A program made the position numbers and the translations under genes. A DNA stretch of 6,291 bases from a virus: the IMG/VR virus record IMGVR_UViG_3300009365_002071. One strand, given 5' to 3'. The notes under the pieces were generated by a model. That model did not search any database, was not told the origin of the DNA, and saw only the letters and a list, made by a program, of their open reading frames with translations. Positions 333 to 6,291 of this stretch are shown here, piece by piece; within the stretch, counting starts at the first letter, position 1, and each line of letters starts with the position of its first letter.

Positions 333-1676
333 ATGGATCATACTCGCAAACGCATTGCACCTCAATTACCGCACCCGCAGGCCGCGCAGCGGCCCCTTGG
401 TAATACTGCTAAATCCTCTTCACCCCCCAGCGAACAAAAAAAGCGGCGTGAGCGTTTCGAGGCTCTGATGCAGGCCCGCGTCTGGCTGTCGAAGTCTCCC
501 AAGTGTAGGCGGGCTGACGTCAAGTATCCCGGCGATGCGTACCGTACCCATGATTGCAAGTGGACGATGCTCGGCCAGCAGGTCTACTGCCTTCGGGACC
601 CTGCCAACAAGGCCGCTCACTTTGGTTCCCTGGTAACGTGCGGGTCCGTCTGGGCTTGTCCGGTTTGCGCCTCCAAGATTCAGCAGCGCCGCCGGGGCGA
701 GCTTCAGCAGCTTACAAGCTGGGTGGAGTCCACCGACCGCCATGCAATTATGGTCACTTTCACGTTTCCCCATACCCGGATTCAGACATTGCGCGAGTTG
801 CTTCTGAGGCAGCGCGAGGCGTTCGGCAAGCTCCGCGCCGGTAAAGCGTGGGTTCGCATCAAGGCCGCAATGGGTTATCAGGCTATGGTGCGCTCACTTG
901 AGATTACCCATGGTTCATCCGGCTGGCATCCTCACACACATGAACTGTGGGTTTTGAGCGGTCAGCCAAGCATGGCCGATCGTGCCCGCCTTCTGGGCGA
1001 AATCGTTGATCGCTGGGAAAAGTGCTGCATCTCTTCCGGTCTGCTCGATCCTTCCGACGAGGTTAAGGTCCGCGCCTTCCGTGCCCACTCCGTCGATATC
1101 CGCTGGCAGGTGTCCTGCGCTGAGTACCTGGCGAAACAGGACGCGGCTCGTGCTTGGGGCGTCGAGTCCGAGTTGGCGCTGTCGAGGACGAAAAATGGCC
1201 GAGCTTCCGGCGTTCACCCCCATGAGTTTCTTGTCCGTCAGGCAGACGGTGATTCGTCCAGGTATCTCGAATTTGTCGATGCGACCAAGGAAGTCAGAGC
1301 TCGTCAGCTTTATTGGTCGCAGGGCCTTAAAGCTGCTTGCGGTGTTGTTGACCTGTCTGACGAGGAACTGGCCGACGATTCCCAGCAGCTTGCCGAGTAT
1401 TTCTCCGGTTTAACTGCTGACCAGTGGCGGGCAGTTCGCGGTAATGGCGTTCGTGCTCATTTGCTTGAGTATGTCGCGGCTGGTGATATGACTGGCTTTT
1501 TGTCTCTCCTGCATTCTGTGGGTGCCCCGCTGTTCCTTGATCAGCGTCAACAGCTCGCGCTCGGTAATTCCCTGGACGGCTGCGAACTTAATCAGCCTTT
1601 TCACTTCGTCCGTTTGCATCATCCTTGCCCCGCTCCTTTGCAATTTTCATCAGGTTTTCCACCGCCTGCGTCATAG
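333..1676 (+). CDS. Rolling-circle replication initiator, HUH endonuclease (pC194/Rep_1 - Phage_CRI-like)
   Basis: Long ORF. The start is chosen at ATG 333 because GGAGG (320-324) lies 8 nt upstream. The GTG 279 and ATG 309 alternatives lie inside or next to the hairpin and have no SD. Motifs: Cys cluster CGSVWACPVC (639-665), HUH-type WHPHTHELW (HPHTH at 927-941), and catalytic-Tyr motif AEYLAKQ (Tyr codon 1125-1127, Y-x-x-K). Confidence 0.9.
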   Translation: MDHTRKRIAPQLPHPQAAQRPLGNTAKSSSPPSEQKKRRERFEALMQARVWLSKSPKCRRADVKYPGDAYRTHDCKWTMLGQQVYCLRDPANKAAHFGSLVTCGSVWACPVCASKIQQRRRGELQQLTSWVESTDRHAIMVTFTFPHTRIQTLRELLLRQREAFGKLRAGKAWVRIKAAMGYQAMVRSLEITHGSSGWHPHTHELWVLSGQPSMADRARLLGEIVDRWEKCCISSGLLDPSDEVKVRAFRAHSVDIRWQVSCAEYLAKQDAARAWGVESELALSRTKNGRASGVHPHEFLVRQADGDSSRYLEFVDATKEVRARQLYWSQGLKAACGVVDLSDEELADDSQQLAEYFSGLTADQWRAVRGNGVRAHLLEYVAAGDMTGFLSLLHSVGAPLFLDQRQQLALGNSLDGCELNQPFHFVRLHHPCPAPLQFSSGFPPPAS

Positions 1677-1758
1677 TCCAACCGCGTTCAGCGCATAGCA
1701 ATTTAAGCTCTTTATGCACCTGTTTTTCCAGGCTGATCGTCTTAGGTCTATCGGTCAT
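1588..1758 (-). CDS. Ribbon-helix-helix (CopG/Arc/MetJ-like) DNA-binding protein, putative phage repressor/regulator, 56 aa
   Basis: The minus-strand ORF is trimmed to the internal ATG at 1758, which is preceded by AAGGGG 9 nt upstream. The sequence MTDRPKTISLEKQVHKELKLLCAERGWTMTQAVENLMKIAKERG fits a beta-strand / helix / turn / helix RHH pattern. It is the only credible minus-strand gene. Confidence 0.7.
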   Translation of the reverse strand: MTDRPKTISLEKQVHKELKLLCAERGWTMTQAVENLMKIAKERGKDDANGRSEKAD

Positions 1759-1846: not shown

Positions 1847-2119
1847 ATGACTACGACTTTCCGGATGGAAATCGACGGCCAGAAAAAAACCGGCACTCGC
1901 ATTGATCGCAAAACCAACGCTCAGATCCAATATTTTATTTACGTCGCCTATGTCGTCCTTCCCGGCTACAAACATCCTCAGGCGGTAGAGCATTATAGCG
2001 AAACGCCTTTACAGCCGGGCTCTCTGTTTGATGTTCCAGTTATTGCCGAGGTCAAAGACGGCAAGGTTGCGTTCTCGGCTGACTATCGAGCCGCCAAGCA
2101 AGTCACCAAGGCCGCGTAA
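1847..2119 (+). CDS. ssDNA-binding protein (gene V analogue, Pf3-SSB-like), 90 aa
   Basis: Its position is immediately after rep. SD AAGGG (1833-1837) precedes the start. The size is typical. The C-terminal pattern PLQPGSLFDVPVIAEVKDGKVAFSADYRAAK resembles, from memory, the Pf3 SSB pattern ...IPAGSYQVPYRINVNNGRPELAFDFKAMK. Confidence 0.72.
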   Translation: MTTTFRMEIDGQKKTGTRIDRKTNAQIQYFIYVAYVVLPGYKHPQAVEHYSETPLQPGSLFDVPVIAEVKDGKVAFSADYRAAKQVTKAA

Positions 2120-2237: not shown

Positions 2238-2510
2238 ATGGCGGGTTGCTTCGAAGTTGTTCAAGGTTATCTACAGCATGTCGGCGAATTCTCCGACACT
2301 TGCACCGGTTTCGTTGTTGTAACCGCCGACGATTATCGTAACGCCCCCACCTTTGAAGCGCTTTTCACTGTTCCCGAATCCGAGGCTATCAGCTCTGCCT
2401 TTATCGCCGGTCTGAGCCTCCCCCTTATCCTTTGGCTTTCTGCCTGGGGATTCGGTGTGGTGGTCAACTTCATAAACCACCGCTCCGATCAACCAACCTA
2501 TGAGGAGTAA
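2238..2510 (+). CDS. Hypothetical membrane protein (90 aa) in the gVII/gIX position; possible minor virion or morphogenesis protein
   Basis: ORF 2193..2510 is trimmed to ATG 2238, with a weak GGTG at 2227-2230. There is a C-terminal hydrophobic segment, ISSAFIAGLSLPLILWLSAWGFGVVVNFI. Its stop TAA (2508-2510) sits inside the spacer between the coat-gene SD and ATG, so the two are tightly linked. Confidence 0.55.
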   Translation: MAGCFEVVQGYLQHVGEFSDTCTGFVVVTADDYRNAPTFEALFTVPESEAISSAFIAGLSLPLILWLSAWGFGVVVNFINHRSDQPTYEE

Positions 2511-2515
2511 TACCG

Positions 2516-2650
2516 ATGGACTTCACCGCCGTTACGTCCGCTGTGGACGCCACCACTATCGTTGCAGCCATTGCAGCGATTGCCGCAATCAAAATCCTTC
2601 CCGGCGTTGCCAAATGGGGCTTTGGTAAGGTTATCGGCTGGTTCCGTTAA
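2516..2650 (+). CDS. Major coat protein, 44 aa, leaderless Pf3-type (gene VIII analogue)
   Basis: Not in the supplied ORF track because it is too short. ATG 2516 is preceded by GAGGAG (2502-2507) 8 nt upstream. The translation is MDFTAVTSAVDATTIVAAIAAIAAIKILPGVAKWGFGKVIGWFR: an acidic N-terminus (D2, D11), an Ala/Ile-rich helix core and a basic C-terminus (K26, K33, K38, R44). A strong terminator follows, as after gene VIII in Ff phages. Confidence 0.85.
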   Translation: MDFTAVTSAVDATTIVAAIAAIAAIKILPGVAKWGFGKVIGWFR

Positions 2651-2704: not shown

Positions 2705-2788
2705 ATGATCTATCTGATCCTTTCTTTCGTCTGGGGCATCGTCTGCGCTAAGGCGATTCAGTCCGGTTTTGATTCAACGGTGAACTGA
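2705..2788 (+). CDS. 27-aa hydrophobic micro-ORF translationally coupled to the pIII-like gene (possible minor coat protein or coupling leader)
   Basis: The ORF from ATG 2705 to TGA 2786-2788 encodes MIYLILSFVWGIVCAKAIQSGFDSTVN. Its stop overlaps the pIII ATG (TGATG). The size and hydrophobicity resemble Ff pVII/pIX (32-33 aa). There is no clear SD. Confidence 0.35.
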   Translation: MIYLILSFVWGIVCAKAIQSGFDSTVN

Positions 2789-4017
2789 TGCGCAAAATTC
2801 TGTTACTCGTCGTGTCTTTGGCTTTGTTGCCATCCCAGGCATACGCGGCGTTTTATACGTTTACCTCATACCAGTTCGGCGGCTCTTATTCATCTGCTCT
2901 TGATGCTTGTATCGCTGTTTCTAACTACAATCTCGGCGGCAATATTAAGCACGGCGTTGCTACTGTTTCCACATATTCACTCGGTGGTTGGCGGTGCAAT
3001 TTCACGCGTGAAGATGGTTCGACGTGGACCAGTAACACAACCTACCGCGTCACTAGACTTGGCGATTCATGTCCGCCGGACACTGTTTATAATCCGGCAC
3101 AGGGTTCGTGTGATCCAGAGCCGGTCGATTGTTCTGAGTCTGCGGGAACTACAACCTATCAATTTTTCCTCGCAGCGACGCGCAACAGTGTAGACGAACC
3201 ATTTCCAGACCCCTCCACCTATCAGGTCGAGGTTCCGCCCTCTATCTGCTCCAGCGAGTGTCGGTATACCGATTCGTCAACGGGGGACACCGTTACTTGT
3301 GGCCGTCTGACTGGCTCTGATGGCCTCGGCCTGTACTGTTACTCCCCCTTTACCGGCACAGGCGAGCAGTGCCAAGCCTCCGACGAACCCCACACTGGCC
3401 CCGGTGACCTCGGTGGCCCTACTCCTGCCGATCCAGCCGACCCTGAGGACCCCACCGACCCTGCCGTTACTTGCGGCATGACTCCTGGCTATGTCTGGAC
3501 CGGTACAACCTGTGCGCCCGTTTTTGAGCCTGAACCAGACGATGGCGGCTCTGATGGTGGTGATGGTGATGGCGGTACTGATCCCGGCACTGGCGGCGGC
3601 ACAGGCGGAACTGGTGGCGGCACTGGCGGCACTGATCCCGGTACTGGTGATGGCGGTACTGATCCCGGCACTGGCGGTGGCACTGGTGGCTCTGGCGGTA
3701 GCGACGGGGATGGCGGTGATGACTCGACATGCACAGGTGAAGAGTGTGCTCAGGACTGGTATCAGCCCGGCGAACGCACCATGGAAACCGTTATGCAGGG
3801 ATTTACCGACCGTGTTCAGTCGTCCGCCGTTGTCCAGGCTACCGACCGGTTCTTCACGATGAATGTCGGCGGCTCCTGCCCTGTCTGGTCCGTCAATGCC
3901 TGGGTGTTCACCATCGTCATTGACCAGCACTGTTCCAATAATATTCCGTGGGCTGCTATTCGTGCCGTGCTTCTCGCTTGCGCCGGCTTCGTCGCTTTCC
4001 GCTGGGCTTTCCTTTGA
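2788..4017 (+). CDS. pIII-like adsorption / minor coat protein, 409 aa
   Basis: Sec signal peptide MRKILLLVVSLALLPSQAYA|A. The ectodomain has 16 Cys. There is a Pro/Asp-rich segment and then a Gly-rich linker. The conserved-looking C-terminal module (GGSCPVWSVNAWVFTIVIDQHCSNNIPW) ends in the hydrophobic anchor AAIRAVLLACAGFVAFRWAFL. The gene sits between the coat and pVI/pI genes. Confidence 0.85.
   Translation: MRKILLLVVSLALLPSQAYAAFYTFTSYQFGGSYSSALDACIAVSNYNLGGNIKHGVATVSTYSLGGWRCNFTREDGSTWTSNTTYRVTRLGDSCPPDTVYNPAQGSCDPEPVDCSESAGTTTYQFFLAATRNSVDEPFPDPSTYQVEVPPSICSSECRYTDSSTGDTVTCGRLTGSDGLGLYCYSPFTGTGEQCQASDEPHTGPGDLGGPTPADPADPEDPTDPAVTCGMTPGYVWTGTTCAPVFEPEPDDGGSDGGDGDGGTDPGTGGGTGGTGGGTGGTDPGTGDGGTDPGTGGGTGGSGGSDGDGGDDSTCTGEECAQDWYQPGERTMETVMQGFTDRVQSSAVVQATDRFFTMNVGGSCPVWSVNAWVFTIVIDQHCSNNIPWAAIRAVLLACAGFVAFRWAFL
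3538..3723 (+). repeat. In-frame Gly/Thr/Asp low-complexity repeat region (linker) within the pIII-like gene
   Basis: It encodes DDGGSDGGDGDGGTDPGTGGGTGGTGGGTGGTDPGTGDGGTDPGTGGGTGGSGGSDGDGGDD. A 29-nt exact duplication GATGGCGGTACTGATCCCGGCACTGGCGG occurs at 3568-3596 and 3649-3677 (period 81 nt, or 27 codons). ACTGATCCCGG(C/T)ACTGG occurs three times (3577, 3631, 3658). Confidence 0.9.
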
Positions 4018-4026
4018 GGTGTCGCT

Positions 4027-4320
4027 ATGGACTTCTTTACTCTTGAGTTTTGGAAGGGCCTTTGGGATGACTTCGTTGAATTCATCACCGATCTTCCCGC
4101 TGCTGTCCTTGAAAGCATCCTCGGCGTTATCGCCGGGCTGATCGAGTCGCTTACGCCTCCTGATTTTATGAATCAGTCGCTCGGTGATGTACTTGGCCCG
4201 ACCATGCCTTATATCGGCTCCTTTCTTGCCCAATCCGGTTTTGCCGAGGCGTTCGCACTTCTAGGTGCTGGCCTCGCTTTCCGTCTGTTGCGTAAGCTGT
4301 TCACCCTGGGTCAGTGGTAA
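4027..4320 (+). CDS. pVI-like minor coat protein (DUF2523-type small membrane protein), 97 aa
   Basis: SD GAGGTG (4016-4021) lies 5 nt before ATG 4027. There are two or three hydrophobic helices (AAVLESILGVIAGLI; AEAFALLGAGLAFRLL). It occupies the canonical position between the pIII and Zot/pI genes. Its stop overlaps the Zot start (TAATG). Confidence 0.75.
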   Translation: MDFFTLEFWKGLWDDFVEFITDLPAAVLESILGVIAGLIESLTPPDFMNQSLGDVLGPTMPYIGSFLAQSGFAEAFALLGAGLAFRLLRKLFTLGQW

Positions 4321-5564
4321 TGATCGCTTTTCATGAGGGTTTGCCCGGTGCTGGTAAGTCGTATGAGGCGTGTTGTTACCACATCCTGCCCGCGCTCAAG
4401 GCTGGCCGGCACGTTGTCACCAACATTCGCGGCATTAACTGCGAAAAGTTTGCTGAGCTGCTCGACGAACCTGTCGAACTCGTTGAAATGCTGGTTACCC
4501 AGATCGAACCAGCAGAGCAGGAGGACGACGAGAAGGAAATCACCCGCGTCAAAGACGAATTTGCTACCAGGACGCCTGATGGTGCCCTGATCGTCTGGGA
4601 CGAGATTCAGGACTATTATCCGAGCGGCAATTACAAGCTGCCTCACTCGCATCAGAAATTTTGGACCGAACACCGGCACCGTGGTCTTGATATCGTCATC
4701 ATGGGTCAGGACCGTGACGACGTTCATAAGATCATCCGATCCCGCATTGAGGCGTTAACCTACTTCCTCAAGCTGAAAGCTGTCGGCCAGCCCAACAAGT
4801 ACAAGTGGGAACACTACGAACGCCAGCGTAAGGGCAAGTTTGAAAAGATCGGCTCCGGTGTCCGATCTTATGACAGCCAGTATTTCGGCCTCTACTTGAG
4901 CCACCGCAAGGAGGGCATCAAGTCCAGCGTGTACACAACCGGCCGCACCAACGTTTTGAAGAACACCAAGCTCCTTACTCTCGGCGTTCCTGTCGCCTTC
5001 GCTGCTGCTATTTACGGCGTATCCCACCTGTGGTCCTTCTTCCATCCTGAACCAGCACCAACGCCCCCAAAGGTCGGCGTCTCCTATTCTCGCGCTCCTG
5101 CTGCGGCTTCATCACCTCCACCAGCCGCAGTACCTTCTTCACCTGGTCAACACGCTCGCACATCCGAACCCGAGCCTGAGCCGATCGACTATTTCGACCG
5201 CATGGCCACTGCCTATTCTGTCCGGCTTTCAGGTTTGATTTCCTCCGAGCAGGAGGGCAAAGAACTGCTCGGTTATGTCGAGATGCTGGATTCCAGCTAT
5301 CACGTTAAAGAGCGTTTCACGGTCCAGGATATCCAGGCTTTGGGCTGGGCTGTCTCGCATGAGGTTTACGGTCTACTGATTGTCAAAGAAGGCGTCAGGC
5401 ATGTCGCTCGCGCTTGGCCTCTCGACCTATTCGGGCGCGTCGATCAACGAACGGCAAACAGCCTGGATACCAGCCAAAAGCCTTTAGGCTTGGCTGGTTT
5501 CCAGGCTGAAACCCGGTCCTATGTCACCGTCATCAATGACTCGTCACCACCAAGCGCGCCCTAG
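4320..5564 (+). CDS. Zot-family assembly ATPase (gene I / pI analogue), 414 aa
   Basis: The N-terminus MIAFHEGLPGAGKSYEA carries Walker A (GLPGAGKS). Walker B-like ALIVWDEIQ is present, as is the conserved HRHRGLDIVIMGQD block. A single TM segment (LLTLGVPVAFAAAIYGVSHLWSFF) is followed by a Pro-rich linker and a C-terminal periplasmic domain. The start could alternatively be GTG 4314. Confidence 0.95.
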   Translation: MIAFHEGLPGAGKSYEACCYHILPALKAGRHVVTNIRGINCEKFAELLDEPVELVEMLVTQIEPAEQEDDEKEITRVKDEFATRTPDGALIVWDEIQDYYPSGNYKLPHSHQKFWTEHRHRGLDIVIMGQDRDDVHKIIRSRIEALTYFLKLKAVGQPNKYKWEHYERQRKGKFEKIGSGVRSYDSQYFGLYLSHRKEGIKSSVYTTGRTNVLKNTKLLTLGVPVAFAAAIYGVSHLWSFFHPEPAPTPPKVGVSYSRAPAAASSPPPAAVPSSPGQHARTSEPEPEPIDYFDRMATAYSVRLSGLISSEQEGKELLGYVEMLDSSYHVKERFTVQDIQALGWAVSHEVYGLLIVKEGVRHVARAWPLDLFGRVDQRTANSLDTSQKPLGLAGFQAETRSYVTVINDSSPPSAP

Positions 5565-5582
5565 TCACGACCGTTCGTCGGT

Positions 5583-5637
5583 AATTTTGGTAACGTTACG
5601 ATAATCCGTTGTTTAATTTCGGTAACGTTACTATAAT
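5583..5637 (+). promoter_or_regulatory. Two tandem 23-bp operator-like repeats, each with the perfect palindrome GTAACGTTAC abutting a -10 hexamer
   Basis: R1 is AATTTTGGTAACGTTACGATAAT (5583-5605). R2 is AATTTCGGTAACGTTACTATAAT (5615-5637). They are 21/23 identical and spaced 32 bp centre to centre. The palindromes lie at 5590-5599 and 5622-5631. Confidence 0.6.
5609..5637 (+). promoter_or_regulatory. Sigma70-type promoter for the orf96-orf101 cassette
   Basis: TTGTTT (5609-5614), a 17-nt spacer, then the consensus TATAAT (5632-5637). The operator palindrome fills the spacer. SD GGAGG (5653-5657) and ATG 5665 lie downstream. Confidence 0.55.
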
Positions 5638-5664
5638 TAAGTCACCAACAACGGAGGCGCGGAA

Positions 5665-5955
5665 ATGTCATTCAACAAAGCACGATTCAACCTTTTTGTG
5701 GACGAAGTCATCACCCGACTTGTTGATTTATCCAACGCTGTTAATCGTGGCGATACATTCACCCGAAACGGAGAATCGCAGTATTTACAGGGTTTGATCT
5801 GGGGTGCTCATCTCGGCGGCATGATTACATCTGACCAATGGGGATCGCTCGGCAATTTGATCTGCGCGATTGCATACCAGGAAGACGGGGCACCGCTGGA
5901 ATCAAGCCTTATTGGCCCGATTGTTGAGTCCGTACTTCCGGAGCGCCTGCAATGA
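5665..5955 (+). CDS. Hypothetical soluble protein, 96 aa (orf96)
   Basis: GGAGG lies 7 nt upstream of the ATG. The stop overlaps the next start (ATGA at 5952-5955). There is no TM segment and I recognise no motif. GC is lower than in the core genes. Confidence 0.65.
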   Translation: MSFNKARFNLFVDEVITRLVDLSNAVNRGDTFTRNGESQYLQGLIWGAHLGGMITSDQWGSLGNLICAIAYQEDGAPLESSLIGPIVESVLPERLQ

Positions 5956-6257
5956 AAGATCAAGCCGACAAGCAAACTTCAGAATTGCCGCTTAACGGTA
6001 ACGTACCCAAAAAACGCGGTCGCCCGAAAACTGGCAAGGCGTTATCCAATGCCGAGAAGCAGCGCCGCTACCGCCAGCGAAAGTCCCAGGGTGATCAGGC
6101 CGTCGCCTATCGTGAGGAAGCCAAGCGCCTCTATGCCCAGCTTGTAACGGCTAACCGTGAGGTTGATCTTTGCCGCTATGAGCGTTCCGAAGCGTTCCGC
6201 GTTGTTGAGATATACCGACAGCGCCTGGAGCAAGCTGGATTATCGACGGATTATTAG
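5952..6257 (+). CDS. Small basic DNA-binding-like protein, 101 aa: AT-hook-like KKRGRPKTGK, basic stretch AEKQRRYRQRK, and a C-terminal helical/coiled-coil-like region (orf101)
   Basis: GGAG (5940-5943) lies 8 nt before ATG 5952, translationally coupled to orf96. RGRP is the AT-hook core. An Arg/Lys-rich segment follows, then the amphipathic EEAKRLYAQLVTANREVDLCRYERSEAFRVVEIYRQRLEQ. The gene runs across the circular junction. Confidence 0.72.
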   Translation: MKDQADKQTSELPLNGNVPKKRGRPKTGKALSNAEKQRRYRQRKSQGDQAVAYREEAKRLYAQLVTANREVDLCRYERSEAFRVVEIYRQRLEQAGLSTDY

Positions 6258-6291
6258 GACCTCCGTCGCCTGGACGCGATCACGGTCAGTC
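6173..6291. repeat. Terminal direct repeat, copy 2 (circular-contig overlap)
   Basis: Identical to 1-119 (offset 6172). Confidence 0.95.

Follow-up and report, generated by a model that had tools for sequence, protein, structure and literature searches.

Paired palindromes upstream of orf101 as predicted autoregulatory operators in an inovirus genome

An 'AT-hook motif protein' encoded downstream of pI was described in 2023 as a putative regulator in filamentous prophages of Cupriavidus and Ralstonia, and an H-NS/Lsr2-like silencer role was proposed for it (PMC10011098). A review of Ralstonia phages gives no function to this open reading frame (ORF; PMC3816273). The protein, represented by the RefSeq ORF10 of Ralstonia phage RSS1, apparently belongs to the same family as orf101, the second gene of the orf96-orf101 operon in the inovirus record IMGVR_UViG_3300009365_002071, of which we analysed the whole stretch of 6,291 nucleotides (hereafter the window). 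Here, we deal with two repeats, R1 and R2, which lie inside the 100-nt gap between zot and orf96 and thus ahead of this operon. The N-terminal module of orf101 matches RSS1 ORF10 in tblastn; the Ralstonia protein carries GRGRP together with NAERQAAFRARRK, and just upstream of its gene a palindrome borders directly on a -10-like TAAAAT. In contrast to the silencer role proposed in 2023, the evidence collected here points to sequence-specific palindromic operators on the promoter of orf101 itself; operator, specificity, autoregulation and helix architecture of this protein were previously undescribed. Our literature searches on bZIP or AT-hook proteins in filamentous phages returned only the 2023 note, and they found the exact palindrome in no phage paper and no paper describing the operator.

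The autoregulated repressors lambda cI, P22 Arc/Mnt, CTXphi RstR and Pf4 Pf4r resemble the predicted orf101 system in having at least two palindromic operators, one of which overlaps the core promoter of the regulator's own gene, so that negative feedback is expected. In our genome the predicted operator likewise overlaps the core promoter, with orf101 in the transcription unit downstream, and the same layout is found in relatives. Unlike these repressors, orf101 has no helix-turn-helix (HTH) or ribbon-helix-helix (RHH) domain, and its operon follows the assembly gene zot instead of lying in the replication/immunity region; where a repressor gene usually lies, a separate RHH gene is found here. 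A further comparison is offered by RptR, a small dimeric bacterial autorepressor with repeated short palindromes overlapping the -10 box, for which the authors describe a bZIP-like reading of DNA (PMC12255303). RptR differs from orf101 in being a four-helix protein with the 6-bp site TAGCTA that controls defence islands and lacks an AT-hook or a long coiled coil, and there is no sequence relationship between the two.

Our reading, to which we assign a probability of about 0.72, is that the repeats R1 and R2 serve as operators for orf101, a protein of the phage itself, which would exert negative autoregulation on the orf96-orf101 operon.

The repeat module and its conservation among relatives

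As the initial annotation had described, R1 (5583-5605) and R2 (5615-5637) are identical at 21 of 23 positions, and the palindrome in each of them is followed directly by a hexamer, GATAAT (5600-5605) at R1 and TATAAT (5632-5637) at R2. A repeat finder delimited the same pair as 5582-5605 and 5614-5637 (24 nt, 92% identical, start-to-start spacing 32). The perfect 10-bp palindrome GTAACGTTAC occurs exactly twice in the genome, at 5590-5599 and 5622-5631. With up to one mismatch allowed there are still 2 matches, compared to 0.11 expected, and none of 200 shuffles reached 2. The half-site GGTAACG is present in 4 copies with 0.62 expected, a number that was again reached in 0 of 200 shuffles. 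One of these four copies lies at 632-638 in rep, where it is written in L-V-T-C codons and has no second half-site. The recurrence of TGGTAACGT at 631-639 in rep, to which the initial annotation had pointed, is present, but only as a half-site. The shortened copy CGGTAACGTAC was found at 5996-6006 as claimed, and the degenerate in-gene copy at 5997-6007 (Table 1) may be a weak third site.

The TATAAT of R2 precedes the orf96 ATG by 27 nt, with GGAGG in between, and judging by the position of the hexamer, transcription would start near 5644. A consensus promoter scan did not list a promoter with this TATAAT, because the candidate -35 hexamer TTGTTT matches TTGACA at only 3 of 6 positions. Four metagenomes yielded identical assemblies of this genome, and since the four copies are identical from zot to orf101, they are uninformative on constraint. 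A search of Rfam gave no match anywhere in the 6291-nt stretch.

Conservation was analysed both from the DNA and from the protein side. A first scan of IMG/VR for two GGTAACGTTAC copies 15-30 nt apart returned 50 loci. Most of these are coding G-N-V-T repeats in larger phages, located in terminase-small-subunit-like, tail-fibre-like and replisome-organizer-like genes, and were set aside as unrelated to the operator. The two-palindrome pattern is non-coding in five small contigs (L012, L016, L038, L046 and L047), and all five encode an orf101 homologue immediately downstream, with zot, rep and g3 genes that are distant or unrelated. The second copy is followed by TATAAT in L016, L046 and L047 and by TAAAAT in L012, and L038 has no clear -10 hexamer at this place. 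In L016, the closest relative, the module is kept nearly base for base; zot is 24% and orf96 35% identical.

A second scan of viral contigs with the pattern GTAACGTTACTATAAT identified 62 loci, and 46 of them encode an orf101-like protein at most 1.3 kb downstream on the same strand. Two further loci stop at the contig edge, with the second palindrome present, and in one of them, L016, the gene was found across the circular junction. The remaining 14 have no second palindrome, 9 of them on contigs of more than 13 kb, and their number is consistent with the chance expectation for a 16-mer in a collection of this size.

Starting from the protein, an alignment of orf101 homologues led to 80 viral loci, on contigs that with few exceptions measure 5-9 kb. 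Most of these loci carry the palindrome twice upstream of the operon, most commonly at positions -111 and -48 from the ATG. The proximal palindrome is fused to TATAAT, and each base of the hexamer is kept in 24-27 of the 27 unique proximal sites. Where a small ORF precedes the orf101-like gene, the sites shift upstream of that ORF, which points to a conserved unit of predicted operators, promoter, optional cargo ORF and orf101-like gene. The leading ORFs themselves, in the position of orf96, belong to several unrelated families among the relatives or are absent.

A closer look at the single sites revealed the flank consensus ATTTAnG-GTAACGTTAC-TATAAT for the proximal and AATTAAG-GTAACGTTAC-TTTAT for the distal copy. 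What is conserved in the relatives is thus the 10-bp palindrome, the AT-rich flanks (5': ATTTA or AATTA; 3': TATAAT or TTTAT) and TATAAT after the proximal copy. As the 3' flank of R2 doubles as the -10 hexamer, conservation there has a second explanation besides an AT-hook target. Only L016 retains the complete 23-bp unit together with the GATAAT that follows R1, which makes R1, as far as the comparison goes, an auxiliary operator and not a second promoter. The spacing of 32 bp, from which the initial annotation had placed both sites on the same DNA face, holds for this genome but is not a conserved property: site-to-site spacing is 63 bp in the largest clade and 25, 26, 30, 32 or 37 bp in others. 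For the R2 promoter, the TATAAT upstream of orf101-like genes was borne out by the relatives, but the TTGTTT was not. The general idea of an operator-promoter module for a dimeric regulator is strongly supported by these data, with two copies of the palindrome in dozens of diverged inovirus contigs and the palindrome-TATAAT fusion conserved and always located ahead of an operon with an orf101-like gene. The genes around the module, namely zot, rep and the leading ORF of the operon, are in many cases unrelated.

The relatives furthermore contain a perfect third palindrome inside the regulator gene. Here, 17 of 18 xNVT motifs are written xGT-AAC-GTT-ACn, GTT makes up only 28% of the Val codons in these regulator genes, and the first residue of xNVT varies between S, G and R. 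By this pattern of codon use, the in-gene palindrome of the relatives is kept at the DNA level.

Residue 36, the operator classes and the orf101 protein

Two classes of palindrome were found, which differ only at the symmetric third and eighth positions, and they follow residue 36 of the orf101-like protein. Lys36 (AEKQR) goes with GTAAC-GTTAC (the hyphen marks the centre) and Arg36 (AERQR) with GTTAC-GTAAC or the hybrid GTTACGTTAC. Among distinct DNA-binding domains the split is 21/0/0/13 (Fisher p = 1e-9, kinship ignored). Of all helix columns, position 36 alone sorts the distinct domains without error (31 of 31); the S/T and N/P columns fail for the lineage of this genome (LSNAEKQR with GTAAC-GTTAC) and for L116. 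More distant variants conform to this scheme and pair AEKQARYRAR with GTAAC-N-GTTAC and AERQRLYRQR with GTTAC-N-GTAAC. In the Pseudomonas aeruginosa phages 42-1 and WX-Y, AERARRYRANKK (AERARRYR) is accompanied by TTATCGTGAC-GC-GTCACG and then TATAAT, and in RSS1, NAERQAAFRARRK (AERQAAFR) by GTTAC-CA-GTAAC and then GTAAAAT.

Because one residue of the basic helix co-varies with one operator base pair, orf101 itself is most likely the binder of R1 and R2, as judged from these sequences. The initial annotation had named it as a possible autoregulating binder beside the RHH protein and a host factor, and of these candidates orf101 is now the favoured one.

The part of the protein common to the family comprises the first ~45 residues, and the C-terminal parts vary freely. 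The N-terminal consensus reads M[KI]D..DKQT..LPL....KRRGRP.TGKA[ML][ST][NP]AE[KR]QR.YR.R, and G23, R24, P25, A34, Q37 and R41 are invariant in 121 aligned sequences, with K or R before the GRP core. Pfam gave no match for orf101 itself, AT_hook included, whereas the RSS1 homologue scores 17.4 bits against AT_hook, equal to the cut-off. On the strength of this conserved motif we take the RGRP core of orf101 to be an AT-hook. AlphaFold, run with the 121-sequence alignment, predicts residues 1-32 as disordered and residues 33-94 as a single helix (mean predicted local distance difference test score, pLDDT, of 82). Residues 50-95 show an unbroken a/d heptad pattern, with 87% hydrophobic residues (mostly Ala, Val, Tyr and Leu) at the a/d positions compared to 27% elsewhere, and this contrast, calculated over residues 44-95, was reached by 0 of 2000 shuffles.

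This architecture resembles eukaryotic bZIP proteins, above all those of the Pap1/YAP type (PDB 1gd2, 7aw7), in which a disordered basic segment also runs into one long heptad helix and which, like the predicted orf101 operators, use short ACGT-core palindromes with abutting half-sites. In the alignment to 7aw7, N-A-E-K-Q-R-R-Y-R of orf101 is spaced as N-R-A-A-Q-R-A-F-R, and the spacing from N33 to R41 is right. The core of the Arg36-class operator, TTACGTAA, is what we take to be the Pap1/YAP site. With the full-length profile, the best match among solved structures was the bZIP domain 7aw7 (E = 0.0014); Pap1 was insignificant (E = 0.48). Unlike bZIP proteins, orf101 has Ala-rich and not Leu a/d positions and an AT-hook before the helix.

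Membership in the bZIP family is not supported by the sequence. No Pfam bZIP model matched orf101 or any of 121 scanned members of its family, a profile restricted to the basic region found no bZIP in the PDB, the hallmark Asn is Pro in most members of the orf101 family, and some members have no coiled coil. For these reasons we do not call orf101 a bZIP protein; it is predicted to work like one with an added AT-hook, a resemblance of working principle with homology not established. Foldseek of the AlphaFold model against the PDB returned no match, as expected for a single helix. The insignificant matches of the basic-region profile included the N-terminus of the Helraiser transposase, in which residues 12-28 and 54-69 (PDB 7lcc; SAAERCRRYRQK and SEAEKQRRHRQK) resemble the basic helix of orf101; this may be a recurrent short DNA-binding motif.

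The family is large: a search of 1.84 billion representative proteins gave 1674 clusters with E <= 0.001 and 349 with E <= 1e-10, although a few of the weakest matches may be coiled-coil or AT-hook noise. Pfam, NCBIfam and PHROGs hold no named family for orf101 or orf96, and almost all members of the orf101 family are named 'hypothetical protein' in their source records. Besides RSS1 ORF10, the family includes proteins of P. aeruginosa phages, and the named hosts include Pseudomonas, Halopseudomonas, Metapseudomonas, Chromobacterium and Ralstonia.

Proposed autoregulation and its alternatives

In the mechanism that we propose, an orf101 dimer would be held together by the C-terminal coiled coil in parallel orientation. 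Its two basic helices (residues 33-43) would lie in the major groove, each over one 5-bp GTAAC half-site, and the RGRP AT-hooks would reach into the minor groove of the AT-rich flanks. Because the 3' AT-rich flank of R2 is the -10 hexamer itself, orf101 at R2 is expected to occlude this element and to keep the sigma-70 RNA polymerase off it, so that either recognition or melting would be blocked. The orf96-orf101 operon would thereby be shut off, resulting in negative feedback. R1, and perhaps the degenerate in-gene copy too, would serve as auxiliary sites that raise occupancy. The parallel dimer, its binding to the sites and the preference for repression over activation are inferred.

Several findings weigh against this picture. 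The Fisher test ignores phylogeny and the Lys and Arg groups are largely two clades, a confound that is broken by the SN+Lys lineage of this genome and by L116. Proteins with Arg36 tolerate hybrid sites, and five Arg36 modules have hybrid sites only. L053 (Lys36) has near-hybrid sites, at a spacing of 32 bp as in this genome, and L124 (Arg36) has TAACGCGTTA, which falls outside the simple rule. With site spacings between 25 and 63 bp, the sites do not share one cooperative geometry. Ala occupies many of the a/d positions in the coiled coil, a pattern that fits parallel and antiparallel pairing alike, and in some family members the basic helix is followed by a beta-like VTVTFNR segment instead of a coiled coil. 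Finally, the -35 element is weak and unconserved, its equivalent in relatives being TTAGCC or TAGCCT.

This last point leads to the alternative that survives best, namely that orf101 binds but activates the promoter or acts as a switch. With a -35 hexamer that matches the consensus at 3 of 6 positions and is not kept in relatives, the promoter might need activation and depend on a bound protein, and the distal site upstream of it is conserved. Activators that bind within the spacer, as at MerR-type promoters, typically work on spacers of 19-20 nt. The spacer in our genome has 17 nt, and a site abutting a consensus -10 hexamer is the usual geometry of repression. The distal site, moreover, moves between 25 and 63 bp, which speaks against a fixed activator contact. 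We consider this alternative unlikely.

Less probable still is that R1 and R2 are operators for another protein, be it a host transcription factor, orf96 or the RHH protein (1588-1758, minus strand). Dimeric regulators of many kinds could use palindromic operators, and the genome does encode an RHH protein, which in scans of family libraries gave weak matches to Arc, RHH and MatP_C-like models. Homologues of this protein were detected in L016 and L047 but not in L012 and L046 (E < 1e-3), all of which have the identical operator, and the RHH protein, proposed as a binder in the initial annotation, is likewise absent from many phages with this operator. In the case of orf96, the ORF at the corresponding position is non-homologous or absent among relatives. 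A host factor, also proposed initially, would leave the joint change of half-site and residue 36 across Pseudomonas, Halopseudomonas and Ralstonia unexplained. As the operator changes with residue 36, none of the three can account for the pattern, and we regard this alternative as improbable.

That the repeats are replication or packaging elements, either iterons or an R1:R2 hairpin serving as minus-strand origin or packaging signal, is very improbable: R1 and R2 can pair (18 nt, 89% complementary), the minimum-energy fold pairs them and one GenBank record names a homologue 'replication regulatory protein RepB', but the pairing is a by-product of each site being itself palindromic, the single-strand fold is no better than that of shuffled sequence (z = -1.0), Rep proteins are anywhere from 34% to 91% identical among phages with the identical operator, the TATAAT fusion and the fixed distance of ~48 nt to the ATG speak for transcription, neither Pfam nor NCBIfam supports the 'RepB' label, and a much stronger hairpin nearby (5459-5508) is the better candidate for a single-strand signal.

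A reading of R1/R2 as a XerCD dif/attP site, of the kind that integrative filamentous phages have, was also rejected. No dif-like core (CATTATGCGAA; sequence for comparison from PMC4076744) is present near R1/R2, and the attP-side copy of the relatives does not co-vary with the regulator. This copy belongs to a strongly conserved non-coding hairpin, AACGTTACATTAAATCG...CGATTAAACGTAACGTTACCCATTATGCGAA, found in L062-L130 at ~570-890 nt downstream of the orf101-like start (+786 in L077). The end of the hairpin matches the dif core of Xanthomonas phage attP, TATACATTATGCGAA (PMC4076744), and it holds a further copy of GTAACGTTAC, which does not differ between Lys36 and Arg36 phages and is hence not tied to the regulator. 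The genome studied here lacks this attP-like hairpin; the phage may not integrate.

Genome layout, further elements and biological meaning

The window represents a circular inovirus genome of 6172 nt plus a terminal duplication of 119 nt (bases 1-119 equal 6173-6291). Its features are collected in Table 1. The nearest named phage is Pseudomonas phage PMBT54, with a Rep identity of 40%; megablast of the whole genome against GenBank phages gave no match, and relatives are found there at the protein level only.

Table 1. Genes, operators and promoter elements of the window
Feature	Position	Strand	Remarks
Rep_1-type replication protein (rep)	333-1676	+	
RHH gene, small	1588-1758	minus	
Single-strand DNA-binding protein	1847-2119	+	
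Small ORF	2238-2510	+	
Major capsid protein	2516-2650	+	
g3-like protein	2788-4017	+	
g6-like protein	4027-4320	+	
Zot-type assembly ATPase (zot)	4320-5564	+	
R1, distal operator (predicted)	5583-5605	+	palindrome 5590-5599; 5' flank AATTTTG, 3' flank GATAAT (5600-5605), AT-rich
Candidate -35 hexamer TTGTTT	5609-5614	+	17-nt spacer; weak, 3/6 match to TTGACA
R2, promoter-proximal operator (predicted)	5615-5637	+	palindrome 5622-5631 takes up the promoter spacer, directly bordering the -10 hexamer
-10 hexamer, consensus TATAAT	5632-5637	+	read from the sequence; conserved across relatives
Shine-Dalgarno GGAGG	5652-5656	+	8 nt upstream of the orf96 ATG
orf96	5665-5955	+	first operon gene; variable cargo without family assignment
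orf101, predicted regulator	5952-6257	+	second operon gene; 101 residues
Degenerate in-gene copy GGTAACGTACC	5997-6007	+	inside orf101; one base deleted; encodes G-N-V-P
AT-hook RGRP (residues 22-25 of orf101)	6015-6026	+	
Basic recognition helix (predicted), NAEKQRRYRQR (residues 33-43)	6048-6080	+	
Codon of specificity residue Lys36	6057-6059	+	

Several other elements were observed in the window. The strong hairpin at 5459-5508 (arms of 19 nt) is contained in the 3'-terminal part of the zot coding sequence and precedes R1 by ~75 nt; as single-stranded DNA it reaches -26 kcal/mol (z = -7.3). Just ahead of the distal operator, relatives contain a GC-rich hairpin that shows compensatory changes. 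The element at 5459-5508 could terminate the structural operon or act as packaging signal or minus-strand origin. Just upstream of rep, at 267-310, an A-run and TTTAT flank a GC-rich hairpin (CCCCCGTGA...TCACGGGGG). It sits in the 247-nt gap after orf101, the fold of which as a whole is no better than that of shuffled sequence, and could be the terminator of the orf96-orf101 operon or part of an origin.

The RHH gene on the opposite strand overlaps the 3' end of rep by ~89 nt and is called as a 56-residue form by the gene callers in other assemblies of the same genome. An inverted repeat (1754-1770 and 1835-1851; 17 nt, 88% complementary) brackets the gap between this gene and the gene of the single-strand DNA-binding protein, and a 21-nt direct repeat, GACCnnTTGTnTTTTTGTGTT, is present at 229-249 upstream of rep and at 1766-1786. 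Both repeats are candidate RHH operators.

On contigs of larger phages, the 12-bp palindrome GGTAACGTTACC was seen in two further settings. The terminase-small-subunit-like genes of large phages carry 2-3 copies of it between the N-terminal HTH and GAPKGN repeats (contigs L001, L005-L009, L011, L013-L015, L019, L020, L024, L028-L032, L035, L036, L040 and L044). Within one protein or among related ones, two different reading frames (VTLP and xNVT) are used for these copies, which points to selection on the DNA, and they may form a pac site. Non-coding clusters of GGTAACGTTACC are present in the larger phage contigs L034 (1157-1303, contig of 58 kb) and L042 (11243-11292, 18 kb), which have no orf101-like gene nearby; here, another regulator may use the same palindrome.

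With respect to the biology of filamentous phages, which shape virulence and biofilm behaviour in Pseudomonas, Ralstonia and relatives, a small gene after zot that was functionally unexplained so far gains a predicted target site, a likely role as autoregulator and a candidate specificity residue. An autoregulated operator-promoter is in itself an ordinary principle. Not ordinary are the predicted reading head, the size of the family and the clean co-variation of residue and base.

At somewhat short of even odds, we tentatively propose that orf101 and its ~1,670 relatives are regulators of bacterial viruses that read DNA in the manner of eukaryotic bZIP proteins, with a basic helix running into a dimerising coiled coil and an additional N-terminal AT-hook. 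Residue 36 (Lys or Arg, with other substitutions for GTGAC-type sites) would set one base pair of the 5-bp half-site, and the differing C-terminal oligomerisation domains would set the half-site spacing. The pairing of operator and protein could be probed by a K36R point change, comparing GTAACGTTAC with GTTACGTAAC, and the natural series of matched protein/operator variants would offer ready-made orthogonal small repressors.

The bZIP type of DNA reading is generally held to be a eukaryotic invention (PMC12255303). If our proposal is true, a bZIP-like reading head exists outside eukaryotes, either independently evolved or anciently related, and small enough to re-engineer. Such a large phage family, with its basic helix, coiled coil and ACGT-core palindromes, would then bear on how the bZIP solution arises.

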